Shown here in pieces: positions 4,582 to 19,641 of a stretch of 19,641 bases of DNA. Origin of the DNA: a virus. Taxonomy: Duplodnaviria; Heunggongvirae; Uroviricota; Caudoviricetes. Position numbers and translations under genes: made by a program. The stretch lies in IMG/VR virus record IMGVR_UViG_2778261231_000016, positions 1 through 19,641 of that record; one strand, written 5' to 3'. Position 1 is the stretch's first letter; every line of letters begins with the position of its first letter. The notes beneath the pieces are model-generated. The model was not told the origin of the DNA, searched no databases, and was given only the letters and a program-made list of their open reading frames with translations.

Positions 4582-4592
4582 CCATCAACGAA

Positions 4593-4614
4593 AAAGCCCA
4601 CATCTGTGGGCTTT
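4593..4614 (+). terminator. Stem-loop downstream of the autotransporter stop (AAAGCCC-loop-GGGCTTT)
   Basis: Seen: inverted repeat AAAGCCCACA / TGTGGGCTTT starting 12 nt after the TGA at 4579-4581. The following T-tract is weak (TTTCATGTT), so intrinsic-terminator function is uncertain. Confidence 0.45.
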
Positions 4615-4741
4615 CATGTTACCAGGAGCCGCGGCTCCTTTGCGTATCCTTTTATGTCTCCTCACCGTCTGGTCGGTGTTTTGCTGAGACTTCTAACTTC
4701 CTGTTTTTGTTGGTGTTGTCCTTACACCGTCCAATCATGAT

Positions 4742-4785
4742 TGGTGGGCTGGCGGGAGTTGAACCCGCGTCCGAAATTCCTACAT
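4742..4785. repeat. att direct repeat: second copy of the ssrA 3' end (island boundary distal to ssrA)
   Basis: Seen: TGGTGGGCTGGCGGGAGTTGAACCCGCGTCCGAAATTCCTACAT at 4742-4785 matches 18582-18626 (the 3' end of ssrA, minus-strand gene) apart from a single missing A after TGGTGG. Identity stops after CCTACAT on both copies. Confidence 0.9.
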
Positions 4786-4980
4786 ACCATTTTTATTATA
4801 GTAAAAACAGTAGATTATGTTTGAAAACAATGTGTTAGTGTTATTTTGTATTTGCTCGTCTTACGCGTTTTTAATGCTCTGCCGCCAAAGTGCCGCCATT
4901 ACATCAAGCATCTAGAATAAAATTAGTTAATAAATTATAATTAATATGCTAATTGTTCTTGCATTCATAAGTGGGACGTG

Positions 4981-6714
4981 ATGAAAGAAAAAAAATTCGT
5001 TAGTGAGCTTTTCCTTGAAAATGGGCAGTTTATTTTAGTCGGTTTGACAGGTCGAACTGGTTCTGGTTGCACAACAACAGCTAATATTCTTGAAAACGAA
5101 AAAACAGTCTTCCCTGATGTAAGTAAATTACAGGGGTTTTACAAGGGATTGGATGTCCATCGTTATAATATAGTTAAAAAATTCGCAGAAAATCACTGGG
5201 AAAATTTTTACTCAATTAAGGTGAGTGACCTAATCTCAGCGTATCTTCTGATGTTAACAGTTGAGGAAGCTTCTGAATTCATTCTATCATCTAATAAATT
5301 TATCAGTAAAGGGCATTTAGATATTGTATTAACTTTTGGTGTATTCTCAGATAATCTCATTTTGACAAGATTTAAAAATGTAATTGAGAATTTGCTTGAT
5401 CATAATAGTGAATTGAAGCTTGATGAAAAAACGATTAATAAATTTATATCAATTTTGAAGTTAGTTAGAAAATTTACTAAAGAATTCAAAGCTGAACTAA
5501 ATGAGATAAACTCAAATTTATATGTTTCAGCCTATCAGTTAGCAGGTAAGTCAATTAGACGTCGTGGGCGTATTGAAGTCGATTTTGAAGATAAAGAGTT
5601 TATGCCTAAATCTGTTTTTCATTTGCCGGAAACTATTAATAGGGTTATTAAATTAATAAGAAAAAGCAAAAGAGATAACGCATTAATTGTCATAGATGCT
5701 ATTAGAAATCCATATGAGGCAAAATTTTTTAAGGATAGATATTCTGCATTTCATTTAATGTCAATAAATGCCCCAGATGAACATCGAACAAACTATTTGC
5801 GGAAACTACATAAGTTTTCAGAAAAGCAGATAGAGGAAATAGATTCTGTAGAGTCAGGTAAAGGTGATAACTCTTACAAACATCTCACCAATCCAAATGT
5901 AACTAAATGTATTGAACTATCAGATATACACATTTTTAACCCAAAAAATGAATTTGATAATGATAATATTTTAAAAGCACAATTAGCGTGGTACATCGCA
6001 CTGATGAAGCATCCTGGTCTGATAACACCTACTGCAATGGAAAGGGTTATGCAAGTTGCGTATACGGTAAAATTAAACTCTGGCTGTATATCTAGACAGG
6101 TGGGAGCTGTAGTAACTGATGGTGATAATTCAATAAAATCAGTTGGTTGGAATGATGTTGCCAACGGTCAGATTCCTTGCTCTATGAGATCTCTAGATGG
6201 CCTAATGAACGATTTTGATGAAAAAACGTACAGTCATTATGAGAGAAATAATAGTTCTTTCAGAATTAAAGCTAATGAGAAACTCTTAAATTTTAGGGCG
6301 ATAGATAAAACTGGTGATATTTATAGAGGCAGGAACTTATCTTATTGTTTTAAAGATATACATAATGATCTTGATAAAGAGAAAAAAGGTAATCAAGTTC
6401 ATACACGTGCATTACATGCTGAGGAAAACGCATTTTTACAACTTGCAAAATATGGTGGTATTGGCGTTCTTGGGGGGAAGTTGTATACAACTGCCAGTCC
6501 CTGTGAGTTGTGTGCGAAAAAAGCTTATCAGTTAGGTATATCTGAAATTGTATTTATTGATCCCTACCCAGGTATAGCTCAAGACCATATTATTAATATA
6601 GGTAGTAAGCCACCAAAGTTAATACAATTTAGAGGCGCAATTGGGAAGTCATATCACCGACTTTATGAGCAAATTATCCCGATAAAAGATGAGTTAGAAT
6701 ATCTCCTTGAGTAG
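4981..6714 (+). CDS. P-loop nucleotide-kinase-like domain fused to cytidine/dCMP-deaminase domain; AvcD/DcdV-like antiphage nucleotide-depletion enzyme (577 aa from ATG 4981; GTG at 4978 is an alternative start)
   Basis: Seen: P-loop G-L-T-G-R-T-G-S-G-C-T-T at 5041-5076 with Cys where the Walker-A Lys is expected; deaminase zinc motifs H-A-E at 6415-6423 and P-C-E-L-C at 6499-6513; very AT-rich compared with flanking phage genes. Established: this two-domain architecture is characteristic of AvcD/DcdV and the dCTP-deaminase defence proteins. Family assignment is from motif recognition only. Confidence 0.7.
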   Translation: MKEKKFVSELFLENGQFILVGLTGRTGSGCTTTANILENEKTVFPDVSKLQGFYKGLDVHRYNIVKKFAENHWENFYSIKVSDLISAYLLMLTVEEASEFILSSNKFISKGHLDIVLTFGVFSDNLILTRFKNVIENLLDHNSELKLDEKTINKFISILKLVRKFTKEFKAELNEINSNLYVSAYQLAGKSIRRRGRIEVDFEDKEFMPKSVFHLPETINRVIKLIRKSKRDNALIVIDAIRNPYEAKFFKDRYSAFHLMSINAPDEHRTNYLRKLHKFSEKQIEEIDSVESGKGDNSYKHLTNPNVTKCIELSDIHIFNPKNEFDNDNILKAQLAWYIALMKHPGLITPTAMERVMQVAYTVKLNSGCISRQVGAVVTDGDNSIKSVGWNDVANGQIPCSMRSLDGLMNDFDEKTYSHYERNNSSFRIKANEKLLNFRAIDKTGDIYRGRNLSYCFKDIHNDLDKEKKGNQVHTRALHAEENAFLQLAKYGGIGVLGGKLYTTASPCELCAKKAYQLGISEIVFIDPYPGIAQDHIINIGSKPPKLIQFRGAIGKSYHRLYEQIIPIKDELEYLLE

Positions 6715-6745
6715 AAATATTATACTCATCCTTCCTGAGGTAAGC

Positions 6746-6779
6746 TTCAAGATGATCAATAAATATTGATCATCTTGAA
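6746..6779. repeat. Perfect 15-bp inverted repeat with 4-nt loop (TTCAAGATGATCAAT aaat ATTGATCATCTTGAA)
   Basis: Seen directly, 32 nt downstream of the deaminase-fusion stop. Contains two GATC sites. No T-tract follows on either strand, so it is not a canonical intrinsic terminator. Confidence 0.8.
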
Positions 6780-7095
6780 AGTTAATTGCAGAGTCAAACT
6801 AGTAGTCAGACTGAAGCTTCGATAAAAAATGTTTTTGTTTTTTTTCATTTTCTAATGACTGTTTTTTATTGGTTTCTTTTTAATGTTGCAATGCTATGCT
6901 TTTCTACTATTTTTGAATGTGGCATCTTTGATGTTTTTATACAACAAAGATGAGGGCCTATAGGTTTTTTTGTGATGTAAAAATTATCTTATTCTATAAA
7001 TAAAACCTAAACTCAGTCTGAAGAGTTAAATGAGAATGGATAACCTGCTGAATATTATATTTGTAAATAGTTTGAGTTTGTTTTCATAAGTTACT

Positions 7096-8112
7096 CTATC
7101 TTAAGTTGCATAAAGGGTTTTTAGTTACCGCATCTTCAAGGTGATCGGGCGAAAAGTGGGCGTAAATCATCGTCATTTTTATATCGGCATGGCCCAGAAT
7201 ATCGCGCAGCACCAGTATGTTTCCGCCATTCATCATAAAATGGCTGGCGAATGTATGACGTAGCACGTGAGTGCATTGGCCCTCTGGCAGCTCGATGCCA
7301 GCTCGCTTTACTGCTCGTTCAAAGGCTTTTCTGCACGGGGTGAATAGCTTCCCTCTGTTCTTGGGGAGTTCGTCATACAGATCTTGAGATATCGGCACGG
7401 TGCGGTTTTTCTTACCCTTCGTCTTGGTATAAGTGATGCGGTATTTAGATAACTGATGGCCCTGCAGGTTTTCAGCTTCACTCCAGCGTGCGCCGGTGGC
7501 CAGGCATATTTTTGCAATCAAAAGCAGACTGGGGTTTTGAGAATCAGCGCAGGCATCTAGCAGACGTTTAATTTCTTCCGAGGTCAGGAACGCCAGTTCC
7601 CCCTCAGCGATTTTAAATGTTGGCAGCCCGGCGAGAGGATTTGGTGCTGACCAGTGGCCTAGTTTTTTCAATGTGCCGAAAACCGATGATAGGTTACGTT
7701 GCTCAAGATTCACCGTGCGTGGTTTTACTGGCGACATTAGTGTGCCGTCTTCGTTACGAACGTCACCTTTTAACCGTGCTTCGCGGTATTTCGTAAAGTC
7801 ACCGGCTGTCAGTTCTGAGGCGATGGGGTCGCCTAGACCATTACAGATAATTCTAAGTTTCGCCATGAGGCGCTTGGGGTCTGCGAGTGTCTGACCATAC
7901 AGGGAATACCAAAGCTCAATTAATTCTGATAGGCGTCGCCGATCATCCTTTTCACCCAACCACGGTTTTTTATTCACTTCTTCCATTGTGAAGCTTTCAA
8001 AAGCAATGGCTTCGCCTTTCGTAGCAAATTGCTTACGCACGCGCTTACCATTGCGTCCATTGGGATAGCACTCACACAACCATTTTCCGTTCGGCTGTTT
8101 TCTGATGGTCAT
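7096..8112 (-). CDS. int: P2/186-type tyrosine integrase (338 aa)
   Basis: Seen: N-terminus MTIRKQPNGKWLCECYPNGRNGKRVRKQF resembles the P2 Int N-terminus; C-terminal catalytic region has ...ATGARWSEA..., HVLRHTFASHF and ...IYAHF (tyrosine recombinase R/H-x-x-R/Y signature). Start abuts the cI stop. Confidence 0.95.
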   Translation of the reverse strand: MTIRKQPNGKWLCECYPNGRNGKRVRKQFATKGEAIAFESFTMEEVNKKPWLGEKDDRRRLSELIELWYSLYGQTLADPKRLMAKLRIICNGLGDPIASELTAGDFTKYREARLKGDVRNEDGTLMSPVKPRTVNLEQRNLSSVFGTLKKLGHWSAPNPLAGLPTFKIAEGELAFLTSEEIKRLLDACADSQNPSLLLIAKICLATGARWSEAENLQGHQLSKYRITYTKTKGKKNRTVPISQDLYDELPKNRGKLFTPCRKAFERAVKRAGIELPEGQCTHVLRHTFASHFMMNGGNILVLRDILGHADIKMTMIYAHFSPDHLEDAVTKNPLCNLR

Positions 8113-8113
8113 A

Positions 8114-8746
8114 TCAAAGGCTCTTAATGATTTTCAGTGCGCGGCCTACTACCTCAATGTCATCTAGGCCACATTCAAACGATGAATCATCCTGATGCAC
8201 TACTAATTTGTTTCCCGGAAGTCGAGTCAATTTAACAATGCTTTTTATCCCGTCAATATCGACTAACCACATACCATTTACTGGTGGTGTTTGGTTGCGA
8301 TCTATTAAATAAGAATCACCAGAAGTAGTCACCAGCAGTAGGTTGCTTGAGTCTGAGGGGAGTATGCTGCTATCAATGATTGCTTTTCCAGCATCGACCA
8401 ATAAACCACCGTTGAGAGTCGCCTTGTCAATTTCAGGAGATACTAGTTTAGAAAGAGGTACAACCTTGCTGGAGTTCACGGAATTGATATTTTTTTTAGG
8501 TTCAATGTTTGGACCTGGCTCCCCCTGTCCGGTGGTTAGCCACAGTAAAGAAACTCCTGTTTCCAAGGCGCACTGAATCACCCACTCTGCAGGAAAACTA
8601 TCTCTTAAGTATCTGTTTGCCATGGTGCTTTTTGATGCGCCTAAGTGATCGCAAAGTTGCTGTCTGGACTTGAAATCATAGGCTGCCATTAGTCTATGGA
8701 TAGCCTCTCTTCCCCCTGTATTCTCTCCAACCTTTACCTGTATCAT
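8114..8746 (-). CDS. cI: CI-type immunity repressor (186 CI-like, 210 aa)
   Basis: Seen: position immediately upstream of int on the same strand; HTH-like N-terminal region (KSRQQLCDHLGASKSTMANRYLRD); RBS AGGA 7 nt before ATG at 8746; faces an operator-containing intergenic region. Homology judged by eye. Confidence 0.8.
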   Translation of the reverse strand: MIQVKVGENTGGREAIHRLMAAYDFKSRQQLCDHLGASKSTMANRYLRDSFPAEWVIQCALETGVSLLWLTTGQGEPGPNIEPKKNINSVNSSKVVPLSKLVSPEIDKATLNGGLLVDAGKAIIDSSILPSDSSNLLLVTTSGDSYLIDRNQTPPVNGMWLVDIDGIKSIVKLTRLPGNKLVVHQDDSSFECGLDDIEVVGRALKIIKSL

Positions 8747-8758
8747 TTTTTAATCCTG

Positions 8759-8810
8759 TTGACGTATCAAATATTGGATCGTAGTATCTCGATGTATCAA
8801 ATATTGAATC
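8759..8810 (+). promoter_or_regulatory. Rightward lytic-type sigma70 promoter overlapping duplicated 17-bp operator-like repeats
   Basis: Seen: -35 TTGACG (8759-8764), 17-bp spacer, -10 TAGTAT (8782-8787). Direct repeats GTATCAAATATTGGATC (8764-8780) and GTATCAAATATTGAATC (8794-8810) lie 30 bp apart centre to centre, the first occupying the promoter spacer. Also tandem ATAAAACGA at 8813-8821 and 8823-8831. Confidence 0.55.
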
Positions 8811-8865
8811 AAATAAAACGAGATAAAACGACGTAAACCAAACCTTAATCGGGAGATACTGCACT

Positions 8866-9108
8866 ATGAGCACTGATATTTCAATTCGTGTACCAAAAGA
8901 GATGGCTACGCCTGCAGAGTTCGCGGAATGGGAAGGTATCTCCCGCGGCTCTGTGTATCAAAAAATTCATCATGGTCAGCTTGCTAAATACATGGTCAAG
9001 AAAGAAAAAAACAAAGGCCGCGTAAGCCTGCGTTATTTAATGTACAAAACCGATCAGGTCCGTGAATCCCTCGGTCATTCCAACTTCCGCGTCATTGTTG
9101 GTAAGTAA
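8866..9108 (+). CDS. Small HTH protein in the apl/cox position (putative excisionase / lytic-switch regulator, 80 aa)
   Basis: Seen: first gene downstream of the rightward promoter and divergent from cI; excisionase-like HTH segment TPAEFAEWEGISRGSVYQKIHHGQL; RBS GGGAGA upstream. Assignment by position and motif only. Confidence 0.45.
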   Translation: MSTDISIRVPKEMATPAEFAEWEGISRGSVYQKIHHGQLAKYMVKKEKNKGRVSLRYLMYKTDQVRESLGHSNFRVIVGK

Positions 9109-9140
9109 GTTCAATTATGAGAACTTTCTAAGGGGGTAGC

Positions 9141-9485
9141 ATGTTTGATTATAAGATTTCCAAACACCCGCATTTTGATGAAGCCTGTAGAGCTTTTGCA
9201 CTTCGTCACAATATGGCGAAGCTGGCAGAACGTTCAGGAATGAATGTCCAGACTCTGCGAAACAAACTCAACCCAGATCAACCGCATCAGCTCAATGCGC
9301 CAGATATCTGGCTACTTACCGATCTGACGGAAGATTCAACGCTGGTAGACGGTTTTCTGGCACAGATTCACTGCCTGCCATGTGTACCGATTAATGAGGT
9401 GGCAAAAGAGAAACTGCCACATTACGTCATGAGTGCAACCGCAGAGATCGGGCGTGTTGCTGCAGGTGCGGTACCGGTTTTCTAA
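9141..9485 (+). CDS. cII: Phage CII-family regulatory protein, apparently C-terminally truncated (114 aa)
   Basis: Seen: RBS AAGGGGG before ATG; N-terminal region MFDYKISKHPHFDEACRAFALRHNMAKLAERSGMNVQTLRNKLNP matches my recollection of 186-type CII proteins. Those are ~165-170 aa by memory, and here the ORF stops right at the junction with the tail-fibre stub. Confidence 0.65.
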   Translation: MFDYKISKHPHFDEACRAFALRHNMAKLAERSGMNVQTLRNKLNPDQPHQLNAPDIWLLTDLTEDSTLVDGFLAQIHCLPCVPINEVAKEKLPHYVMSATAEIGRVAAGAVPVF

Positions 9486-9871
9486 AATATAACGGAGCGT
9501 CATTCAACAAGGCAATGTATCCCAAACTTGCACAAATTTTCCCGTCAGGAGTATTACTTGATTTGCGCGGCGTATTTATTCGAGGCTGGGATGATGGAAA
9601 AGGGATTGATGCCGGGCGTGCAATACTGACACAGCAGCAGGATGCCCAGCAAAATATCACCGGCATGGTTTCTGATATGACAGTCGGCGTAAATGCTGAC
9701 GGAACAGGTGCATTTAGTATGGTCGATTTAACTACATCAGGCATTTCGGCAGGTGCACTAAATTCTTTTTATCAAAAGCATATTTATCTGGATTCCTCCA
9801 GAGTGGTCAGAACGGCAACTGAAAACCGTCCGGTAAATATCGCATTCAACTACATTGTGAGGGCTGCATAA
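9486..9871 (+). pseudogene. Tail-fibre (H-like) C-terminal remnant, 5'-truncated
   Basis: Seen: frame is open from just after the cII stop; translation contains the tail-fibre collar-like motif ...NGASFNKAMYPKLAQIF...LRGVFIRGWDDGKGIDAGRA...; no N-terminal fibre domain or proper start; stop overlaps the G start (TAATG at 9869-9873). Confidence 0.65.
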
Positions 9872-10458
9872 TGATGAACGCAGATTTAGCCATTTTAGAG
9901 AACGGTATTGCGACAACCGCCGGATGGATAACGATATATAACTATTCGGCGGTTACAGGTGAATATCTTGACAGCAACAGTGAATACATTCCAGAAGGTG
10001 TTGGATTGCCTGCGCTGGCAACAGATATTGAACCGCCGAACAGACCGGACGGTCAGGCTGTTATCTGGCAGGGTTCGTGGATACTGATGGATGACTGGCG
10101 GGGTGAAACGGTTTATTCCATTTTTGATGGTTCTGCCAGTATCGTGGATTACCTCGGGGCAATCGCAGAGGGATATACACAACAGAAACCCGCAACCCGT
10201 TTTGATAAATGGGATGGTAAGCAGTGGGTGACTGATACTGACGCGCGAAATACGGAAGCTGTTGCAGTTTCTACGCAACAGAAAGCTGCATTGCTGGCTG
10301 AAGCCACCGCGACCATAGCACCGCTTCAGGATGCAAAAGACGGAGGTTATATTGATGATGCTGATATTCCGATGTTGATTTCTTGGCAAAAATATCGCTA
10401 CGCGCTGACTAAAGTTAATCCTAAAACTCCTGTTTGGCCCAGCAAACCAAGTGTATAA
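9871..10458 (+). CDS. Tail-fibre assembly protein (P2 G-like, 195 aa)
   Basis: Seen: start overlaps the upstream fibre stop as in P2 H/G; 195-aa product in the expected position before the G-FI accessory slot. Similarity to gpG-type chaperones judged by eye. Confidence 0.8.
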   Translation: MMNADLAILENGIATTAGWITIYNYSAVTGEYLDSNSEYIPEGVGLPALATDIEPPNRPDGQAVIWQGSWILMDDWRGETVYSIFDGSASIVDYLGAIAEGYTQQKPATRFDKWDGKQWVTDTDARNTEAVAVSTQQKAALLAEATATIAPLQDAKDGGYIDDADIPMLISWQKYRYALTKVNPKTPVWPSKPSV

Positions 10459-10470
10459 ATGGTAATATAA

Positions 10471-10505
10471 AAGGCAGTTCACTCTATGATGAACTGCCTT
10501 TTATA
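10471..10505. terminator. Bidirectional stem-loop between convergent G and the 110-aa cargo ORF
   Basis: Seen: AAGGCAGTTCA (10471-10481), 8-nt loop, TGAACTGCCTT (10490-10500), followed by TTTAT on the plus strand and TTATATT on the minus strand. Confidence 0.6.
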
Positions 10506-10524
10506 ACGAGCATCAAAATATAGA

Positions 10525-10857
10525 TTATTTACCAAACAAAGAAACTATGTTGACTGCGACTGTGGTGATATCAGTCGCAGGTTTTAGCCATTTACTGATT
10601 TCATACTTGTCAAGGATTGAAGGGTACTCACTTGCTTCAACTGTTTTCAATTGATGTGCCGCTTGATTAATGTTTTCAAGTGGCGCGCCGGGAATGAAAT
10701 TTTCTTCTAGAAAGCTTTTTTGGCTTTCATATATTGATATCGCCTCGCCATTTCCAGAAAAAGTAGTTTCTTTAAAAACTAACTCTGTACACTCTGGTGC
10801 TCGAACTCCAATCGTATTATTAATAAAAGTACAACCCTCGAAAGTATGCTTACCCAT
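10525..10857 (-). CDS. Hypothetical protein (110 aa), AT-rich cargo in the G-FI (P2 Z/fun-equivalent) slot
   Basis: Seen: ATG at 10855-10857, stop followed by the stem-loop above; opposite orientation to all flanking late genes; markedly lower GC than neighbours; no recognisable motif, no signal peptide or obvious TM segment. Confidence 0.6.
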   Translation of the reverse strand: MGKHTFEGCTFINNTIGVRAPECTELVFKETTFSGNGEAISIYESQKSFLEENFIPGAPLENINQAAHQLKTVEASEYPSILDKYEISKWLKPATDITTVAVNIVSLFGK

Positions 10858-11032
10858 TTTTAGATTTTACCTTGGTTGCGTAGTGAAACCATTAGTTTAC
10901 ATCTTTCACCAGTAGCAATAAAAATGATGGTTAAGAATTGAGACGAGTATCACTGAACTATACATGCTGACCAAAGGAACCTTTCAAAGAATTTAAATGC
11001 GCTGCTAACGATCATTTTTCGTCAATATCAAT

Positions 11033-11050
11033 TGTGCTATTTCCCACACA
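11033..11050 (+). promoter_or_regulatory. Candidate Ogr-dependent late-promoter element (TGT-N12-ACA) upstream of the FI operon
   Basis: Seen: TGTGCTATTTCCCACACA at 11033-11050, ~75 nt upstream of the FI ATG. Established: P2 late promoters carry a TGT-N12-ACA dyad centred near -55 recognised by Ogr. Single motif match, so moderate confidence. Confidence 0.45.
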
Positions 11051-11124
11051 TAGCCCACTACGTGCGCCGCGTGCATATCAACCAGAACATAGGCACACCC
11101 CCTGTAAACCGGAGAGACTGCCTT

Positions 11125-12297
11125 ATGGCTCAGGATTACCACCACGGGGTGCGCGTTGTTGAAATCAACGAGGGCACCCGATCCATTACCACGGTGAGCA
11201 CCGCCATCGTGGGCATGGTCTGCACCGGCGATGATGCTGATGCGTCCATGTTTCCCCTCAATAAGCCGGTCCTGCTGACCGATGTGCTGACTGCCAGCGG
11301 TAAAGCGGGCGAGTCCGGCACGCTGGCCCGTTCGCTGGATGCGATTGCAGACCAGGCTAAACCCGTGACCGTCGTTGTGCGCGTGGCACAGGGCGAAACC
11401 GAAGCGGAAACAACCTCCAACATTATCGGCGGCGTAACTGCTGACGGTAAAAAAACGGGTATGAAAGCGCTGCTTTCGGCGCAGTCGCAGTTGGGCGTCA
11501 AGCCGCGCATTCTCGGCGTGCCGGGGCATGACACGCAAGCGGTTGCCACTGAGCTGCTGAGCGTGGCGCAGAGCCTGCGCGGGTTTGCCTACCTGTCCGC
11601 TTATGGCTGCAAAACGGTAGAAGAAGCGATTGCCTACCGTGACAATTTCAGCCAGCGCGAGGGGATGCTGATCTGGCCTGACTTCATCAACTTTGACACC
11701 GTGCTGAATGCCGACGCGACGGCTTACGCCTCCGCCCGTGCGCTCGGCCTGCGCGCCAAAATTGACGAGCAGACCGGCTGGCACAAAACCCTGTCCAACG
11801 TGGGCGTGAACGGCGTTACCGGCATTTCCGCTGATGTGTTCTGGGATCTGCAGGACCCGGCAACCGATGCGGGACTACTGAACCAGAACGACGTCACCAC
11901 GCTTATCCGCAAAGATGGCTTCCGCTTCTGGGGTTCCCGCTGCCTCAGTGACGATCCTCTGTTTGCCTTTGAGAACTACACCCGCACGGCGCAGGTGCTG
12001 GCTGACACCATCGCAGAAGCGCACATGTGGGCGGTGGATGGCGTACTCAACCCGTCGCTGGCCCGTGACATTATCGAAGGTATTCGGGCCAAGCTGTGCA
12101 GCCTGAAAACACAGGGCTACATCATCGGCGCAGACTGCTGGCTGGATGAGTCGGTGAACGATAAAGACTCCCTGAAAGCCGGGAAACTCACTATCGACTA
12201 CGACTACACGCCGGTGCCGCCGCTTGAAAACCTGATGCTGCGCCAGCGCATCACCGATCAGTACCTGCTGGATTTCTCCAGCCAGGTCAGCGCGTAA
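11125..12297 (+). CDS. Contractile tail sheath protein (P2 FI homologue, 390 aa)
   Basis: Seen: RBS GGAGAG 8 nt upstream; N-terminus [35 protein letters not shown] closely matches P2 FI (MSDYHHGVQVLEINEGTR...). The ORF-track start at 11032 is an upstream in-frame extension I do not believe. Confidence 0.95.
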
Positions 12298-12306
12298 GGG
12301 GACACC

Positions 12307-12822
12307 ATGGCTTTACCACGCAAGTTAAAACACCTGAACCTGTTCAACGACGGGAACAACTGGCAGGGGATCGTTGAGTCTCTGACCCTGCCGAAATTCA
12401 CCCGCAAGTTTGAGAAGTATCGCGGCGGCGGTATGCCGGGCGCGGTGGACGTGGACATGGGGCTGGATGACGGCGCACTGGACACGGAATTTTCAATCGG
12501 CGGCACCGAACTGCTGTTATTTAAGCAGATGGGCAAGGCCACGGTTGACGGAATCCAGCTGCGTTTCACCGGCTCCATTCAGCGTGACGATACCGGCGAA
12601 GTGCAGGCCGTTGAGCTGGTTGTGCGCGGGCGTCATAAAGAAGTGGATTCCGGCGAGTGGAAAACCGGCGAGAGCAGCACCACCAAAGTCAGCAGCACCA
12701 ACAGCTACGCGAAGCTGACCATTAACGGCGAAGTGCTCTATGAGGTCGATCTGGTCAACATGGTTGAAATCGTTGACGGCGTGGACCTGATGGAAGAACA
12801 CCGTAACGCCCTCGGCCTCTGA
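12307..12822 (+). CDS. Tail tube protein (P2 FII homologue, 171 aa)
   Basis: Seen: immediately follows FI with RBS AAGGGG; size and position as P2 FII. Confidence 0.93.
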   Translation: MALPRKLKHLNLFNDGNNWQGIVESLTLPKFTRKFEKYRGGGMPGAVDVDMGLDDGALDTEFSIGGTELLLFKQMGKATVDGIQLRFTGSIQRDDTGEVQAVELVVRGRHKEVDSGEWKTGESSTTKVSSTNSYAKLTINGEVLYEVDLVNMVEIVDGVDLMEEHRNALGL

Positions 12823-12876
12823 TTAACCTTAACGGCGCGGGAAGCCGCGCCAGTATTTCATTAACAGGAAACGAAC

Positions 12877-13179
12877 ATGAGCGACAAGCTGACTGAAAAG
12901 ACCGTAAAACTGGATACCCCCATCATGCGCGGTAAAACTGAAATTACCGAAATTGTGCTGCGCAAGCCGCAGTCCGGCGCACTGCGTGGCACCCGTCTGC
13001 AGGCCATTATGGATATGGACGTGGGCGCGATGATGACTGTGATCCCGCGAATCTCCACTCCGACGCTGACCGCGCAGGAAATGGCAGAGCTGGACCCCGC
13101 CGATCTGACAGCAATGGCTGTAGAGGTGGTGACTTTTTTGTTGCCGAAGTCGGTGCTTGCCGATTTGCCGACAACCTGA
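12877..13179 (+). CDS. Tail assembly chaperone (P2 E homologue, zero-frame product, 100 aa)
   Basis: Seen: RBS AGGAAA; position between the tube and tape-measure genes; contains the slippery heptamer TTTTTTG (13135-13141) near its 3' end. Confidence 0.85.
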   Translation: MSDKLTEKTVKLDTPIMRGKTEITEIVLRKPQSGALRGTRLQAIMDMDVGAMMTVIPRISTPTLTAQEMAELDPADLTAMAVEVVTFLLPKSVLADLPTT

Positions 13180-13313
13180 CGGTTGATGATCTGGTGGCAG
13201 ATATTGCCACCATCTTTCACTGGTCGCCGTCCATCACTGACGTTATGCCGCTGACTGAGGTGCTGGAATGGCGGCATAAGGCAATTCAGCGAAGCGGGGC
13301 CAGCGATGAGTGA
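12877..13313 (+). CDS. E+E' fusion made by programmed -1 frameshift at TTTTTTG (about 13135-13141); E' frame ends at TGA 13311-13313
   Basis: Seen: the -1 frame after the slippery site is open to 13313 and overlaps the tape-measure start (13306). Established: the P2 FETUD operon makes E+E' by -1 frameshifting at this kind of site. The exact shift codon is not determinable by eye. Confidence 0.65.
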
Positions 13314-16083
13314 TAATAACCTGCGTCTGCAGGTGGTTTTGGGGGCGGTTGACAAGTTAACCCGCCCTTTTAAAAATGCCCAGGCTGGCTCAAAAGAGCT
13401 GGCAGCGGCAATCCGGCAGACCCGCGACCAGCTTAAGCAACTGAGCGATGCGGGAGGCCAGTTAAAATCCTTCGACCAGCTATCGCAAAGCGTGCGCCGT
13501 ACAGGTGCAGAGCTGGATCAGACGAGACTGCGCGCGCAGATGATGACGCGCGAAATGTCATCTTTGGAATCCCCAACAAAAAAACAAACTCAGGCGCTTG
13601 AAGCTCAGTGGCGTGCTGTTGCACGTCTTGAGCAAAAGCAGAAACAGGAAACAAACCAGCTATCTGCAGTAAGGGGGGAGCTTTACAGGCTGGGGTTATC
13701 TGCTGGGGGCGGAGCGCGGGAAACCGCCAGAATTACCCGTGAAACTGAGAAGTATAACCAGAAGCTGGCAGAGCAGGAGCGCAGGCTGCGCGAGGTTGGC
13801 GAGCGTCAGCGAAAGCTCAACGCTATCAAAGCCAAGGCTGAAAAGACCCGTGAGTTAAGGAACTCTCTGGCAGGTAATGGTGCAGGGGAGATGGCGGCTG
13901 GGGTAGCTACTGGCATGACGTTATTGGCTCCAGTAAAAGCCTATTCTGAATCTGAAAATGCCGCTAATCAGCTCGCCGGTTCAATGATGGGGCCGGGCGG
14001 AAAGGTCGCACCTGAATTTGAGAAAATTAACCAGCTGGCGGTAGCGCTTGGAGACAGGCTGCCGGGAACCACTGCAGATTTCCAGAACATGATGACAATG
14101 CTGCGTCGTCAGGGGATGTCAGCACAGGTCATTCTTGGCGGGCTGGGGGAATCGGCGGCTTATCTGGGGGTGCAGTTGCAGATGGCTCCCACTGCTGCGG
14201 CTGAGTTTGCCGCAAAATTGCAGGATGCAACACAGACCTCAGAAAAAGACATGATGAGCCTGATGGATCTGATCCAGAAGGGTTTTTATGCCGGTGTTGA
14301 CTCAGGGAATATGCTGCAGGGATTTTCTAATATCAGCAGCGCCATGAGCATTATTAATCAAAAAGGGATTGAAGCAGCTAAAACTTTTGCTCCGTTGCTG
14401 GTGATGGCTGATCAGAGCGGGATGGCTGGTGAGTCTGCAGGTAATGCTTACCGAAAAATTTTCCAGGCAGCGCTGGATTCAAAAAATATTCAGTCAGTCA
14501 ACGACGATCTGAAAGGCACCGGTATCAACTTCAATTTTTCCAATGGTAAAGGTGGATTCGGCGGGCTGGAAAATATGTACGCCCAGCTGGAAAAGCTTAG
14601 TAAGCTCAACGATGAAACCCGGATGGCAACGATTAAGGATCTGTTCGGTAATGATGCGGAAGTCATGAAAGTCCTTAACACCATGATTGAAAAAGGTATT
14701 AATGGATATCGTGAAACTACCGCCAAACTTGAAAATCAGGCTTCACTGCGGGAACGCGTCGATGCGTCCCTGAATACCCTGGGTAATAAATGGGAAGCCG
14801 CTACAGGTTCCTTTACCAATGCTATGGCTAGTATCGGTGAAACAGTTGCCCCAACATTAAAGAAGCTGGCTGACTGGTTGGGTGAACTGGCTTCGCGTCT
14901 GGATGGTTTTGTTAAACGACACCCACAATTGACCTCAGCGCTGTTTAAGCTGGCAGCTGGCTTTGCCATTGTTGCCACCGCCGCTGGGGTTGTTTCACTG
15001 GCGCTGGCGTCCGTGTTAGGGCCGATGGCAGTAGTGCGAATGAGCGCAGGGGTGATGGAGCTAAAATTTTCATCTGCATTTGGTCTTATTGGGAAAGCAA
15101 TCAGTTCTGTTGGCAAGTCAGTTATATGGCTGGGCCGATTGATGTTTGCAAATCCTATACTGGCTGTCATTGGGCTGATCGCCGCTGGTGCTATTTATAT
15201 CTGGCAGAACTGGGACACGCTTGGACCAAAATTCAAGGCAATGTGGGATGCCGTATGTAATGCCACAAGTACGGCATGGGATTGGATTAAAGAGAAGGCC
15301 AGCGCCGCATGGGAGGGGATTAAGTCACTGTTCTTTAATTATACCTTGCCGGGATTAATAGCTAAAAATTGGGATGCAATAAAAACTGGCGTTTCTGAAG
15401 CGTGGGCCAATATCAGACAATCTATTAGTGATAAATGGAATTCGATCCTGGCTGATGTTGCCGCGCTTCCTGCGAAGTTTCAGGACATGGGCAGCGCCAT
15501 TATTGACAGCATTCTCGATGGAATTAATGCCAAATGGGAGACACTCAAAAGCAAGCTTTCCTCAGTCACAGATTATCTGCCTGACTGGATGACCGGAAAT
15601 AATAAAACACAAGACAAAGCACAGGTGCAGGTGGTTGGTGGAGCAGCGGCTGCTGCCGTTCCGTTTGCCGGGATGTATGACAGTGGTGGGATTATTCCGC
15701 GCGGTCAGTTCGGTATTGTTGGAGAGAACGGCCCTGAAATTGTGAACGGCCCCGCAAATGTGACCAGCAGGCGGCGCACTGCCGCGCTGGCTTCCGTCGT
15801 TGCAGGTGTCATGGGCGTAGCGGCAGCGCCTGCAGAGGCTGCTCCACTACATCCTTACAGTCTGCCTACTGTGGCATATAAACAAAGCCAGCCTGCGAAA
15901 TCTGCCAGCGCGCCGCCAGTGATGCACTTTGAAACTCACGCGCCGATCACTATCTATGCTCAGCCAGGGCAGAGTGCACATGATATTGCCCGTGAAGTTG
16001 CCCGACAGCTTGACGAACGCGAGCGCAAGACCAGGGCTAAAGCACGCAGTAATTTCAGTGATCAAGGGGGATATGAATCATGA
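13306..16083 (+). CDS. Tail tape measure protein (P2 T homologue, 925 aa)
   Basis: Seen: long coiled-coil-rich N-terminal half (Q/E/R/K/A-rich), hydrophobic central segments; located between E/E' and U; stop overlaps the U start. Confidence 0.95.
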   Translation: MSDNNLRLQVVLGAVDKLTRPFKNAQAGSKELAAAIRQTRDQLKQLSDAGGQLKSFDQLSQSVRRTGAELDQTRLRAQMMTREMSSLESPTKKQTQALEAQWRAVARLEQKQKQETNQLSAVRGELYRLGLSAGGGARETARITRETEKYNQKLAEQERRLREVGERQRKLNAIKAKAEKTRELRNSLAGNGAGEMAAGVATGMTLLAPVKAYSESENAANQLAGSMMGPGGKVAPEFEKINQLAVALGDRLPGTTADFQNMMTMLRRQGMSAQVILGGLGESAAYLGVQLQMAPTAAAEFAAKLQDATQTSEKDMMSLMDLIQKGFYAGVDSGNMLQGFSNISSAMSIINQKGIEAAKTFAPLLVMADQSGMAGESAGNAYRKIFQAALDSKNIQSVNDDLKGTGINFNFSNGKGGFGGLENMYAQLEKLSKLNDETRMATIKDLFGNDAEVMKVLNTMIEKGINGYRETTAKLENQASLRERVDASLNTLGNKWEAATGSFTNAMASIGETVAPTLKKLADWLGELASRLDGFVKRHPQLTSALFKLAAGFAIVATAAGVVSLALASVLGPMAVVRMSAGVMELKFSSAFGLIGKAISSVGKSVIWLGRLMFANPILAVIGLIAAGAIYIWQNWDTLGPKFKAMWDAVCNATSTAWDWIKEKASAAWEGIKSLFFNYTLPGLIAKNWDAIKTGVSEAWANIRQSISDKWNSILADVAALPAKFQDMGSAIIDSILDGINAKWETLKSKLSSVTDYLPDWMTGNNKTQDKAQVQVVGGAAAAAVPFAGMYDSGGIIPRGQFGIVGENGPEIVNGPANVTSRRRTAALASVVAGVMGVAAAPAEAAPLHPYSLPTVAYKQSQPAKSASAPPVMHFETHAPITIYAQPGQSAHDIAREVARQLDERERKTRAKARSNFSDQGGYES

Positions 16084-16565
16084 TGATGGTGCTGGGGTTA
16101 TATGTCTTTATGCTGCGTACAGTGCCATATCAGGAGCTGCAGTATCAGCGAAGCTGGCGACACGCCGCCAACAGTCGGGTGAACCGGCGACCATCAACGC
16201 AGTTTCTTGGCCCGGGTAATGACTCGCTGACCTTATCTGGCGTACTGCTGCCGGAAGTCACCGGGGGCAGGCTGTCATTGCTCGCGCTGGAGCAAATGGC
16301 AGAGCTGGGCAAAGCATGGCCTCTGATTGAGGGAAGCGGGACCATTTACGGCATGTTTGTGATCGAGAGCCTGAGTCAGACAAAAACAGAGTTTTTTGAA
16401 AGCGGAATGCCTCGCCGTATTGAGTTTACGCTGACCCTGAAAAGGGTTGATGAGTCGCTGTCTGATATGTTCGGCAGTCTCAGCGATCAGCTCAGTAACC
16501 TGCAGGACTCTGCAACGTCTGCGATAGGTAATATTAAAAATACGGTTGGAGGGTTGCTGCAGTGA
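16080..16565 (+). CDS. Tail protein U homologue (161 aa)
   Basis: Seen: N-terminus MMMVLGLYVFMLRTVPYQELQ...LSLLALEQMAELGKAWPLIEGSGTIYGMFVIESL closely resembles P2 gpU; ATGATGATG start overlaps the T stop. Confidence 0.9.
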   Translation: MMMVLGLYVFMLRTVPYQELQYQRSWRHAANSRVNRRPSTQFLGPGNDSLTLSGVLLPEVTGGRLSLLALEQMAELGKAWPLIEGSGTIYGMFVIESLSQTKTEFFESGMPRRIEFTLTLKRVDESLSDMFGSLSDQLSNLQDSATSAIGNIKNTVGGLLQ

Positions 16566-17662
16566 ATTTTAGCTCTGATCTTTTTGACCTGAACAGCAAA
16601 AGCCCGGCTTTCAGTATCGTCATTGAAGGTAAGGACGTGACGACCGTGCTGGATACCCGCCTGATGAGTCTGACGCTGACGGATAACCGGGGCTTTGAAG
16701 CGGACCAGCTTGATCTGGAGCTGGACGACGCCGACGGGCTGATCGCCCTGCCGCGACGTGGGGCAGTGATTCAGCTAGCGCTGGGCTGGAAAGGCCAGCC
16801 GCTTTTCCCTAAAGGGGCTTTTACCGTGGATGAAATTGAACACAGCGGTGCCCCTGACCGGCTGACCATCAGGGCGCGTAGCGCAGATTTCCGTGAAACC
16901 CTCAATACACGGCGCGAAAAATCATGGCATCAGACAACGGTGGGGGAGGTGGTAAAGGAAATAGCCGCCCGGCATAACCTCAAAATGGCGCTGGGCAAAG
17001 ACCTGACGGATAAGGCGCTGGATCATCTGGACCAGACCAATGAAAGCGATGCAAGTTTTCTGATGAAACTGGCGAGACAGTATGGGGCGATTGCTTCCGT
17101 TAAGGACGGGAATCTGCTGTTTATCCGGCAGGGACAGGGAAGAACGGCGAGCGGCAAGCCGCTGCCGGTTATCACCATCACGCGCAAAGCCGGTGACGGT
17201 CATCGGTTCACCCTTGCTGATCGTGGTGCCTATACCGGTGTTATTGCCAGCTGGTTGCATACGCGTGAACCCAGGAAAAAAGAGACAACCAGTGTTAAGC
17301 GTCGTCGAAAGAAAACCACCACACCCAAAGAGCCGGAAGCAAAACAGGGCGATTATCTGGTGGGAACGGATGAAAACGTGCTGGTTCTTAATCGTACCTA
17401 CGCCAACCGGAGAAATGCAGAGCGCGCAGCAAAAATGCAGTGGGAACGTCTGCAGCGTGGGGTTGCTTCATTTTCCCTGCAGCTCGCTGAGGGGCGTGCT
17501 GATCTCTATACGGAAATGCCGGTGAAGGTTACAGGGTTTAAGCAGCCGATCGATGATGCAGAATGGACCATTACCACCCTGGCGCATTCTGTCAGCCCGG
17601 ATAATGGATTTACAACCAGCATGGAGCTTGAAGTAAAGATTGATGATTTAGAAATGGAATAA
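16562..17662 (+). CDS. Tail protein D homologue (late control gene D-type, 366 aa)
   Basis: Seen: GTG start with RBS GGAGGG 8 nt upstream, overlapping the U stop; size and position as P2 gpD. Confidence 0.92.
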   Translation: MNFSSDLFDLNSKSPAFSIVIEGKDVTTVLDTRLMSLTLTDNRGFEADQLDLELDDADGLIALPRRGAVIQLALGWKGQPLFPKGAFTVDEIEHSGAPDRLTIRARSADFRETLNTRREKSWHQTTVGEVVKEIAARHNLKMALGKDLTDKALDHLDQTNESDASFLMKLARQYGAIASVKDGNLLFIRQGQGRTASGKPLPVITITRKAGDGHRFTLADRGAYTGVIASWLHTREPRKKETTSVKRRRKKTTTPKEPEAKQGDYLVGTDENVLVLNRTYANRRNAERAAKMQWERLQRGVASFSLQLAEGRADLYTEMPVKVTGFKQPIDDAEWTITTLAHSVSPDNGFTTSMELEVKIDDLEME

Positions 17663-17729
17663 ATAAGTTCTTAATATTGATTCTTTGTGTATCATTATTG
17701 AGATTTTAATGGTGACGGAGAATAAAAAA

Positions 17730-17948
17730 ATGATGAATTGCCCAAAGTGTGGACATGCGGCGCACACCCGGAGCAGCTTTCAGGTTACTGATAGCACGAA
17801 GGAGCGTTACTGCCAGTGCCAGAACATTAATTGCGGCAGCACATTTGTCACCCATGAAACGGTTGTACGATTTATCGTTACCCCGACAATAATCAATAAT
17901 GCCCCGCCGCACCCTACGCCGGGTGGTCAAGGGCACATGAATTTTTAA
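17730..17948 (+). CDS. ogr: Ogr late-gene transcriptional activator (C4 zinc finger, 72 aa)
   Basis: Seen: MMNCPKCGHAAHTRSSFQVTDSTKERYCQCQNINC... matches P2 Ogr (MFHCPLCQHAAHARTSRYITDTTKERYHQCQNVNC...) in length and Cys spacing; RBS GGAG 9 nt upstream of ATG 17730. The ORF-track start at 17685 is a TTG extension. Confidence 0.93.
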   Translation: MMNCPKCGHAAHTRSSFQVTDSTKERYCQCQNINCGSTFVTHETVVRFIVTPTIINNAPPHPTPGGQGHMNF

Positions 17949-17954
17949 AACAAG

Positions 17955-17978
17955 AACCTGCTGCGGCAGGTTTTTTAT
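17955..17978. terminator. Bidirectional intrinsic terminator between convergent ogr and the BRCT-domain gene
   Basis: Seen: AACCTGC-tgcg-GCAGGTT followed by TTTTTT (17971-17976) on the plus strand; on the minus strand the hairpin is followed by TTCTTGTTTTAAAAAT. Confidence 0.65.
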
Positions 17979-18457
17979 GCGTCAGGAATTTCACCCGTTT
18001 CTATAAAATGAACAAAACTTTCTTCATCAATGATGATCGTACCCTTCATGCGTGCAGCATTTACTTTGGAAGGGCCAGCATTGTATCCGCAACAGAGCAT
18101 CTGCAGATTTTGAGTAACGGAACTTCTCACTGTCATGCTGTGCGCTTCGGCAACTTCAATCAAACGCTCTTTATCTGCCTTTTTGAAACCTGTAAAACAG
18201 ACGTCAAAAGTGAGGGTTTTGGGCTTGGTGGCCTTGGTTAGATGGATGTAATTTTCCGGTAGGAAGGACTGACAGGCTTGCTGTGCTTCATCAGCAGATG
18301 TGCATTCTTGAAGTATTCTATCTTTACGAAACGTTCTTATTGAATGGGTTGATTGGCATATACCCTGAATGTGGTTATCGCTGTAGCTAACACTGCTTAT
18401 TGAATGGGCACCAATGCGCGCATTCGCATTGATGTAAACAAAGTGCATTTCTTCCAT
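17975..18457 (-). CDS. BRCT-domain protein of unknown function (160 aa from ATG 18455-18457)
   Basis: Seen: C-terminal ~80 aa (TLTFDVCFTGFKKADKERLIEVAEAHSMTVRSSVTQNLQMLCCGYNAGPSKVNAARMKGTIIIDEESFVHFIETG) fits the BRCT pattern of NAD-ligase-type BRCT domains; strong RBS AAGGTGA 6 nt before the internal ATG. The ORF-track start at 18544 would overlap the ssrA terminator and is rejected. Confidence 0.65.
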   Translation of the reverse strand: MEEMHFVYINANARIGAHSISSVSYSDNHIQGICQSTHSIRTFRKDRILQECTSADEAQQACQSFLPENYIHLTKATKPKTLTFDVCFTGFKKADKERLIEVAEAHSMTVRSSVTQNLQMLCCGYNAGPSKVNAARMKGTIIIDEESFVHFIETGEIPDA

Positions 18458-18545
18458 GTGAATCACCTTTATTACACAAACGGTTAAGACGTTATGAACG
18501 GTGGGCAAATTGGCTGCCGCCATTTTGCCGCCACAGCCAAACAAA

Positions 18546-18579
18546 AAGGGGTTACGTTTTCACGTAACCCCTTGTTTTA
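18546..18579 (-). terminator. ssrA intrinsic terminator (stem GGGGTTACG / CGTAACCCC)
   Basis: Seen: hairpin immediately 3' of the tmRNA CCA end on the minus strand, followed by TTTTTGT (minus strand). Confidence 0.75.
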
Positions 18580-18581
18580 TT

Positions 18582-18944
18582 TGGTGGAGCTGGCGGGAGT
18601 TGAACCCGCGTCCGAAATTCCTACATCCTCGGTACTACATGCTTAGTCAGTCTTTACATTCGCTTGCCAGCTGCGGACGGACACGCCACTAACAAACTAG
18701 CCTGATTAAGTTTTAACGCTTCAACCCCAGGCAGGGCTTCCACGCGATCTCTTTTGGGTTTGACCTCTCTTGATCCCCGTCCTAAGAGCGGAGGCTAGGG
18801 AGAGAGGGCTCTAAGCAGGTTATTAAGCTGCTAAAGCGTAGTTTTCGTCGTTTGCGACTATTTTTTGCGGCTTTTTACGAGGCCAACCGCCCCTCGGCAT
18901 GCACCTTGGGTTTCGCAAATCCCGTCGAATCCAGAATCAGCCCC
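18582..18944 (-). ncRNA. ssrA: tmRNA (SsrA), 363 nt
   Basis: Seen: reverse complement begins GGGGCTGATTCTGGATTCGACGGGATTTGCG... and ends ...GGGTTCAACTCCCGCCAGCTCCACCA; contains the tag reading frame GCAAACGACGAAAACTACGCTTTAGCAGCTTAA (ANDENYALAA stop). Matches E. coli ssrA from memory. Confidence 0.97.
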
Positions 18945-19158
18945 AATGTGTAAAGGTAAGTATACCAGATTTATGAGCGCCATGACCAGCCTCAATGGCG
19001 TTATCGTTAAAGATTTAGCACCCATGTAGCCTGATTTTTATTCGATTAAGCAATGGGATGGCAACATTTGTGTCGGATGTGATAGCCAATAAGATGTTCA
19101 TTCGCGCCGCCGGAGAGGGAGGCGCGGTGAGGAACTGGTCAATAATTGGAGTGCAGGT

Positions 19159-19641
19159 TTAACGGTGGGCGTTTTTCATGATACGCGCTTTATCCACCTG
19201 CCATTCGCGCTCTTTGATATCTGAACGTTTATCGTGCTGTTTCTTACCTTTGGCGACGCCGATTTTCACTTTGCACCAGGCATTTTTCCAGTACAGGGAG
19301 AGCGCCACTACGGTATAGCCTTCTCGATTGACGCGACCGTACAATGAGTCCAGTTCGCGCTGGTTGAGAAGTAACTTGCGGGTACGGGTAGGATCGCACA
19401 CCACATGCGTGGAGGCCACTGCCATTGGCGTGATGTTTGCGCCAAACAGGAACGCTTCTCCGTCACGCAGAAGGACATAGCTGTCGCTGATATTGGCTTT
19501 TCCTGCGCGCAGGGATTTAACTTCCCAGCCTTGCAGGGCAAGTCCCGCTTCGAACTCTTCTTCGATAAAGTATTCGTGACGGGCGCGCTTGTTAAGCGCG
19601 ATGGTCGCTGAACCAGGTTTATGTGCTTTTTTCTTCGTCAT
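19159..19641 (-). CDS. smpB: SsrA-binding protein SmpB (160 aa)
   Basis: Seen: translation [160 protein letters not shown] is recognisable as E. coli SmpB; adjacent to and co-oriented with ssrA. Confidence 0.97.

Follow-up and report, generated by a model that had tools for sequence, protein, structure and literature searches.

A two-module WYL-BRCT protein encoded on the lysogeny side of P2-like phages, and its possible roles

What does a small gene do at the very end of a P2-like prophage, between the late activator gene ogr and the tmRNA gene that holds the attachment site? The question is raised by a 19,641-nt stretch of DNA from a virus of the Caudoviricetes (IMG/VR record IMGVR_UViG_2778261231_000016, positions 1 to 19,641; hereafter the window), in which such a gene encodes a protein with a WYL and a BRCT domain, called WYL-BRCT below. 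The protein is a further member of a catalogued yet uncharacterised family: the domain census of Makarova et al. 2014 includes the WYL-BRCT combination, and no functional study of the family was found in the literature. The gene, the features around it and the other att core lie as follows.

4748-4785: attL core, a 38-nt exact repeat of attR
17730-17948, plus strand: late activator gene ogr, convergent with WYL-BRCT (from the annotation of relatives)
17955-17972, no strand assigned: hairpin between the convergent ogr and WYL-BRCT genes, a two-way terminator of unequal strength
17975-18457, minus strand: WYL-BRCT coding sequence
18463-18469, minus strand: Shine-Dalgarno sequence AAGGTGA of the WYL-BRCT gene
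18515-18533, minus strand: tandem TGGCGGCA-N3-TGGCGGCA in the P' arm of attP, between the ssrA terminator and WYL-BRCT
18546-18573, minus strand: phage-supplied ssrA terminator hairpin (12-bp stem, then a T-run), on the prophage side of the att core
18582-18944, minus strand: tmRNA gene ssrA, upstream of WYL-BRCT and co-oriented with it
18589-18626, no strand assigned: attR core, a 38-nt exact direct repeat of attL, inside the 3' end of ssrA
19159-19641: smpB, following the tmRNA gene

The first-pass annotation had described a 160-aa minus-strand ORF with an AAGGTGA ribosome-binding site, and exactly this was found: the reading frame is intact, with the stop codon inside the coding span, and the Shine-Dalgarno sequence, which is kept in relatives, is separated by a 5-nt spacer from an ATG start codon at 18457. 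The ORF as called mechanically is longer, starting from a TTG at 18544 and yielding 189 aa; this start was rejected, its extension overlapping the Int arm sites and abutting the terminator at 18546-18573. The proteins of relatives are 160 aa long, with conservation starting at the ATG. A collection of 5.8 billion proteins yielded 179 homologues, and the family comprises 1378 representative clusters at E <= 1e-3. Comparison with seven relatives by the Nei-Gojobori method, using unsaturated dS only, gave dN/dS values of 0.05-0.17, an identical protein (100%) is encoded on IMG/VR prophage contigs, and the functional Yersinia phage vB_YpM_MLG42 encodes a protein that is 95.6% identical (XAF37129). 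The ORF is therefore a genuine gene under strong purifying selection. That it is instead a chance ORF or the decaying remnant gene of a defective prophage, a reading invited by the 13.8-kb deletion remnant in which it resides and by a window protein that by itself falls below the Pfam BRCT threshold, is almost certainly wrong, being refuted by the intact frame, the identity of the IMG/VR and MLG42 copies, the dN/dS values and the confidently predicted fold.

Over its full length, the protein belongs to phrog_2561 (E 3.7e-68), which occurs in P2-like phages of Yersinia, Escherichia, Vibrio, Mannheimia and Burkholderia; the phrog_2561 proteins of Mannheimia phage PHL101, Escherichia phage Cartapus and MLG42 match it as full-length members of the same family, occupy the same lysogeny-side position and show no structural difference. 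Family members have been labelled 'DNA ligase' (PHL101 ORF34), 'putative exonuclease' (Cartapus gp32) and 'BRCT domain-containing protein' (RefSeq), the 'DNA ligase' annotation being used by PHROG, JGI and RefSeq. An identity as NAD-dependent ligase was rejected: the 160-aa protein has no adenylation region, OB fold, Zn finger or HhH, and the LigA profile TIGR00575 scores 22.4 bits against a cut-off of 444, the match being confined to profile positions 546-652. Since only the BRCT end matches those enzymes, the family names 'DNA ligase' and 'exonuclease' are unsupported. Profile searches of the WYL-BRCT protein found no HTH, WCX, nuclease, ligase or other catalytic region, and WYL-BRCT is a non-enzymatic two-module protein, divided as follows.

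18302-18457, minus strand: WYL domain (aa 1-52), a five-strand beta module with the RTFRKDRI motif (alignment, profiles, model)
18209-18301, minus strand: two short helices and a variable linker (aa 53-83; model and alignment)
17996-18208, minus strand: BRCT domain of the LigA/RFC1 type (aa 84-154), with invariant T89, G90, K96 and K131

The C-terminal half is a single BRCT domain of the DNA-ligase/RFC1 type, and the BRCT assignment made earlier from the pattern of residues stands. Against Pfam BRCT (PF00533), the window protein scores 19.3 bits, just below the gathering score of 21.3, 23 of 30 aligned homologues match (best E 1.6e-7), and more distant family members pass the gathering score with 27.1 and 34.6 bits. 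The predicted fold agrees, the order b1-a1-b2-b3-a2-b4-a3 being present in this half. Among solved structures, it comes closest in sequence to the BRCT domains of NAD-dependent ligases and Rfc1; by fold comparison, the nearest viral structures are NAD-ligase BRCT domains. LigA and RFC1 share with WYL-BRCT the fold and the conserved Thr-Gly and Lys positions, but carry a catalytic or clamp-loader module where a WYL domain is attached here.

The phosphate pocket of BRCT domains is defined by two elements, S/T-G in the loop between b1 and a1 and T/S-x-K where a2 starts (PMC10386641). T89 and G90 (b1-a1 loop), K96 (within a1) and K131 (where a2 begins) never vary in the family alignment, and their positions coincide with the S/T-G and Lys pocket elements of canonical BRCT; in the window protein, the T/S of the T/S-x-K element is replaced by Pro129, with T89-G90 and K131 in the expected places. 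The equivalent Thr-Gly and Lys residues of RFC1 reportedly bind the 5' phosphate of recessed DNA, in work of Kobayashi and colleagues from 2006 and 2010. BRCT domains of the LigA/RFC1 type bind DNA and prefer recessed 5'-phosphate ends, according to earlier work as cited in a passage of PMC9293004.

The N-terminal module, which had been left without an assignment, is a WYL domain. The hallmark motif RxFRxDRI is present as R41-T-F-R-K-D-R-I48, and F6, Y8, S24, Q31, G32, T42, R44, D46 and R47 are invariant in this half of the family alignment. The window protein alone has no direct match to Pfam WYL (PF13280); 13 of 30 homologues match (best E 3e-6), and L045 and L048 pass the gathering score, with 34.9 and 36.3 bits against 21.8. 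The distant members that pass it come from Pasteurellaceae and Oxalobacter prophages. When a 58-residue N-terminal family profile was compared with solved structures, the WYL domains of PafBC (6sj9, E 1.7e-5) and PafC (7p5x, E 2.1e-4) were found, that of PafBC being the closest. Strands are predicted at aa 3-9, 15-25, 29-34, 40-44 and 48-52 (model, pLDDT above 90), and a Foldseek search with the model of the whole protein found a 76-aa phage 'WYL domain-containing protein' (E 1.1e-2, target-normalised TM-score 0.57). Behind the WYL domain, helices are modelled at aa 55-62 and 67-73, with pLDDT falling to 68 across the aa 71-80 block, and aa 53-83 form the most variable, indel-rich stretch of the family alignment.

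WYL is an Sm-like sensor domain. In CapW, DriD and PafBC, it binds ssDNA, which serves as a damage or infection signal (PMC11662680). CapW has arginines flanking its WYL triad; these are missing here (H29-I30-Q31), so that the ligand of the WYL half may not be ssDNA. The wHTH-WYL-WCX regulators (PafBC, DriD, CapW, BrxR) have a homologous WYL domain with the RxFRxDRI motif, as in WYL-BRCT, but they also have HTH and WCX regions, which are absent here, and the triad-flanking arginines are not conserved in WYL-BRCT. No HTH families were detected in the protein or in 30 homologues; it begins directly with WYL, and its next domain is BRCT, not WCX. Identity as a wHTH-WYL-WCX transcription factor was thus ruled out, neither an N-terminal winged HTH nor a C-terminal WCX being present, and for lack of both WYL-BRCT cannot act as a transcription factor of the PafBC/CapW type.

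The genomic position of the gene was compared across P2-like phages, including a survey of 41 loci from species-representative genomes. No match was found in P2 or 186, in line with the earlier statement that the gene is outside the P2/186 gene set, though it is widespread in other Peduoviridae. The circular maps of MLG42 and Cartapus read cI, int, (cargo), attP, WYL-BRCT, then convergent ogr and D. In PHL101 and Vibrio phage PV94, WYL-BRCT directly follows the repressor on the same strand, the gap in PHL101 being 3 nt, with the annotated RBS of WYL-BRCT within cI; in a Burkholderia phage, it is the last gene of the repressor operon, abutting D. Within the survey, 12 further P2-like prophages (from Hafnia, Brenneria, Rahnella, Acerihabitans, Yersinia, Wohlfahrtiimonas, Ignatzschineria, Oxalobacter, Pasteurellaceae and Pseudomonas) have WYL-BRCT after the repressor, either directly or with one gene between, and six copies lie at an ssrA end like that of the window. 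The associated repressors are of several types (186-type cI, LexA-like HTH+S24, short HTH), and WYL-BRCT is therefore tied to the lysogeny transcription unit as such and not to any single family of repressor. WYL-BRCT lies on the lysogeny side, usually directly after the immunity repressor and, in the ssrA-integrating lineage, after int and attP; in that lineage, integration leaves it at the end of the prophage, co-oriented with the tmRNA gene just upstream.

Both of these positions are variable cargo slots. At post-repressor loci, the genes between WYL-BRCT and int vary (KAP NTPase, membrane proteins, lipoprotein-like proteins), and the cI-int interval has been described as a hotspot of anti-phage genes in Vibrionaceae phages related to P2 (Rousset et al. 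2022, PMC9122126). Where other E. coli ssrA prophages share this att arm, the slot between ogr and attR is taken by the gene for a 238-aa protein with two TM segments or for a 127-aa protein with a signal peptide, and this filling of one slot by unrelated genes bears out the earlier description of WYL-BRCT as a cargo gene at the prophage end. WYL-BRCT is among the commonest slot occupants and is found in several genera of Peduoviridae. In the int-attP slot, the window has a deaminase fusion, Cartapus a RES-like gene and ETEC L3_E36 a 397-aa hypothetical gene; MLG42 has no comparable cargo gene there. A tie between WYL-BRCT and the deaminase fusion, the co-occurrence of which the first-pass annotation had named as a point to check, was rejected, since Cartapus, L3_E36 and MLG42 keep WYL-BRCT with other or no int-attP cargo.

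In the window itself, 125 nt separate the gene from the tmRNA gene, which is upstream of it on the same strand. As first described, WYL-BRCT lies at the prophage end, with the end of ogr at 17948 on one side and the att repeat inside ssrA on the other. The last 7 nt of the tmRNA are supplied by the phage, as is the terminator at 18546-18573, which is a strong one. The hairpin at 17955-17972 had been taken for a bidirectional terminator shared with ogr; the hairpin is real, and for transcripts of ogr (-14.1 kcal/mol, with a U-run) it is a good terminator, but for those of WYL-BRCT (-9.6 kcal/mol, then CUUGUU) it is a weak one. TGGCGGCA occurs in five exact copies in the window against 0.87 expected, its tandem is kept across divergent relatives, and the same tandem pair is found on the other att arm at 4880-4898. 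From this arrangement, the tandem is probably an arm-type site to which Int would bind; a role as operator of WYL-BRCT was rejected, because both att arms have the tandem.

Between the ssrA terminator and the WYL-BRCT ATG, no credible sigma-70 promoter was found, the sole candidates placing their -10 element over the Shine-Dalgarno sequence. For the gene to be expressed here, transcription would thus have to read through from ssrA in the prophage or from the int side in the circular phage, or to start at an unrecognised promoter. The prophage between the att repeats is a deletion remnant of 13.8 kb, in which int, cI and a truncated cII are followed by the genes from tail-fibre assembly to D and by ogr, and in which no replication, capsid or lysis genes were found; a complete prophage in an E. 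coli ETEC genome carries a copy of this prophage end that is 98.6% identical. The role of WYL-BRCT in the remnant could differ from that in an intact phage.

Wider relatives were also analysed. Among the best 150 of the 1378 representatives, 61 exceed ~210 aa in length; TM helices were predicted by a crude hydropathy scan in 44 (41 N-terminal, 3 C-terminal), 11 have a beta-rich domain without assignment, and the remaining extensions are extra BRCT or WYL copies only. The TM-bearing relatives include L039 and L045, which are copies in Pasteurellaceae P2-like prophages in the same post-repressor slot. At 20 non-P2 loci, Pfam and PADLOC scans of 118 neighbouring proteins found no conserved partner gene, the neighbourhoods consisting mostly of housekeeping genes with three integrases and a few scattered defence genes. 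WYL-BRCT is essentially absent from plasmids (6 weak or partial matches) and rare in E. coli, where 14 of 5426 complete genomes contain most of the query.

What, then, might such a protein do? By analogy with characterised WYL and BRCT domains, WYL-BRCT may be made by the lysogen to bind ssDNA and 5'-phosphate structures, with a function in superinfection exclusion or defence, or in reporting to a partner; this is the reading we prefer, although tentatively. The lysogen would express the protein together with the repressor in the phages where it adjoins cI, and by read-through in the prophage of the window. WYL-BRCT would bind ssDNA combined with a 5'-phosphate end or nick, candidate targets being gaps, resected or cohesive ends and replication intermediates, and binding would hinder superinfecting or replicating foreign DNA, leading to exclusion or defence. 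Acting alone, the protein might cap or sequester foreign DNA; acting in a pair, it might be the sensor half, as suggested by the relatives fused to TM helices or to a beta-rich domain. A sensor or adaptor role, already proposed in the first reading of the sequence, is reasonable since no enzymatic domain is present.

A narrower version, in which WYL-BRCT would be a single-protein, non-enzymatic exclusion factor with WYL on ssDNA and BRCT on the 5'-phosphate end or nick, capping or tethering incoming phage ends, gaps or replication intermediates and so blocking ligation or replication, with ~30% of relatives acting at the membrane and ssrA integration coupling the gene to the highly transcribed tmRNA, is judged unlikely as a whole. 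No effector domain was found in the WYL-BRCT protein, and PADLOC-DB v2 gave no full-length match to any system component, its only match being the candidate PDC-S48 (E 4.6e-7) over profile positions 336-406 of 411, at the BRCT end alone. Counting against a role in exclusion or defence are the mostly housekeeping genes at the non-P2 loci, the lack of a visible promoter and the missing CapW-type arginines.

Exclusion or defence would have precedents of position. Like WYL-BRCT, lambda rexAB, P2 old/tin/fun, K139 glo and the genes of the cI-int hotspot belong to the repressor/int unit and show variable occupancy, and in sister prophages the WYL-BRCT slot is filled by membrane or secreted proteins, resembling the logic of an exclusion-gene hotspot; none of these exclusion or hotspot genes has sequence or domain similarity to WYL-BRCT. 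A stand-alone WYL protein is encoded upstream of Kiwa in a P4 satellite hotspot and has been proposed as a Kiwa regulator (Rousset et al. 2022, supplement). Likened here by description only, it is, as WYL-BRCT is, a small mobile-element cargo protein without HTH, and its gene adjoins that of a membrane protein; it differs in having no BRCT and in its proposed role toward Kiwa, whereas the window gene has no partner gene.

Less probable than exclusion or defence in general, and on the unlikely side, is a role as DNA-damage or ssDNA sensor for the lysis-lysogeny decision of the prophage or for survival of the lysogen. WYL would detect ssDNA gaps, and BRCT would dock on the 5'-phosphate junction of the gap or on a partner, with the outcome that repressor stability, induction or repair is modulated, in the way that PafBC, DriD and CapW use an ssDNA signal. 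The tight linkage to the repressor, probably with co-translation (3-nt gap in PHL101, RBS inside cI), is consistent with this role, as is the sensing of damage-made ssDNA by the WYL domains of PafBC, DriD and CapW (PMC11662680), PafBC being the closest solved WYL domain to the family profile. However, the repressors that accompany WYL-BRCT are unrelated to one another and include LexA-like HTH+S24 proteins that already sense RecA-ssDNA themselves; WYL-BRCT is replaceable by unrelated cargo in the Elveevirus lineage and absent from P2 and 186, and so cannot be a core part of the switch; and the many relatives with a predicted membrane anchor fit poorly with the sensing of gaps in the chromosome.

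An accessory or competitor role toward ligase, in which the LigA-type BRCT would either bring the LigA of the host to ends or nicks in phage DNA or compete with it for these sites, appears improbable. The T5-like phages offer a parallel in subunit B of their split NAD-dependent ligases (9hu3_B; Eps7, PG07), likewise a small phage protein with a LigA-type BRCT, but that subunit is without WYL and pairs with a catalytic subunit A, and no gene for subunit A adjoins WYL-BRCT at any surveyed locus. The domain content (no adenylation, OB, Zn or HhH region, and ~22 bits against 444 for TIGR00575) also argues against it, the sealing of cos ends on entry cannot come from a gene that is not yet expressed, and the replication and repair genes of P2-like phages are not located in the lysogeny-side cargo position.

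Highly improbable is an anti-defence decoy, soaking up the ssDNA or nucleotide signal that derepresses WYL-controlled immune operons of the host (CapW-CBASS, BrxR-BREX), or masking DNA ends from host nucleases. A WYL domain without a DNA-binding HTH or WCX region would suit a decoy, and host WYL repressors are released by ssDNA (PMC11662680), but a gene placed on the lysogeny side and transcribed together with the repressor would more probably serve the lysogen, and the BRCT half and the membrane-anchored relatives would be left unexplained.

For the phages concerned, these results mean that a widespread family mislabelled as 'DNA ligase' or 'exonuclease' consists of two nucleic-acid- or ligand-reading domains and no enzyme, and that it travels with the immunity repressor through many P2-like genera, in slots known for anti-phage genes. 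The protein is small, soluble and easily testable, with T89, G90 and K131 in BRCT and R44 and R47 in WYL as targets for point mutants. If WYL-BRCT protects the lysogen, the known defence systems would gain a binding-only mechanism, and WYL a function beyond transcription factors; a damage sensor acting for the prophage would instead feed a new signal into lysis-lysogeny control.

The prophage, delimited by the 38-nt att repeat, spans positions 4748–18626, a length of only 13.8 kb, and carries int, cI and a truncated cII (about 110 of 146 profile positions), followed by the genes for tail-fibre assembly, sheath, tube, tape measure, U, D and ogr. Genes for replication, the capsid, lysis and the baseplate have been deleted, and the element is a defective remnant in which both end cargo genes are kept. 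The following features were annotated in the window.

1–4581, plus strand: large AIDA/pertactin-type autotransporter adhesin gene, ending just outside attL
4880–4898 and 18515–18533, minus strand: tandem octamer TGGCGGCA-N3-TGGCGGCA, one pair in each phage arm, flanking the att core
4978–6714, plus strand: 578-aa protein carrying a cytidine/dCMP deaminase domain at its C-terminus, encoded within the prophage in the attL–int interval
8761–8780 and 8791–8810: 20-nt direct repeat GA(C/T)GTATCAAATATTG(G/A)ATC, spacing 30 nt, just upstream of the cI start

The adhesin contributes 1526 aa within the window, the remainder lying off its left end, and ~170 nt separate its stop codon from the displaced 3′ fragment of ssrA. 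Within the window, the octamer TGGCGGCA was counted in 5 exact copies against 0.87 expected, and the tandem is retained in divergent relatives; these tandems are probably arm-type Int binding sites of the ssrA-integrating P2-like phage. The repeats at 8761–8780 and 8791–8810 are probably repressor operators or the switch region.

The int-attP interval, occupied in the window by the gene for the deaminase-domain protein, is a second variable cargo slot, and was found to hold a RES-like 401-aa protein in Escherichia phage Cartapus and a 397-aa hypothetical protein in E. coli L3_E36, with no comparable cargo gene in this slot of Yersinia phage MLG42. In the E. coli genome carrying the complete prophage closest to that of the window, a P4-like satellite (NZ_LR882997.1, 1228000–1233000) lies in tandem with the prophage, adjoining its int end, and encodes psu, an AAA ATPase and DUF4435 pair (PARIS-like), and an integrase.

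For the WYL-BRCT family, a crude hydropathy scan of the 150 best representatives predicted transmembrane helices in 44, with 1–5 helices per member, mostly N-terminal. Two such copies (loci L039 and L045) come from P2-like prophages of Pasteurellaceae, where they occupy the slot after the repressor.

L039:7536–8492 and L045:7719–8519: WYL-BRCT copies with transmembrane helices predicted by the same scan

In two sister E. coli ssrA prophages (loci L135 and L136), the ogr-attR slot, which holds the WYL-BRCT gene in the window, encodes other proteins.

L135:2677–3393: two-TM coiled-coil protein, 238 aa
L136:2839–3222: signal-peptide protein, 127 aa

Both are uncharacterised, and are typical of exclusion or lysogenic-conversion genes.
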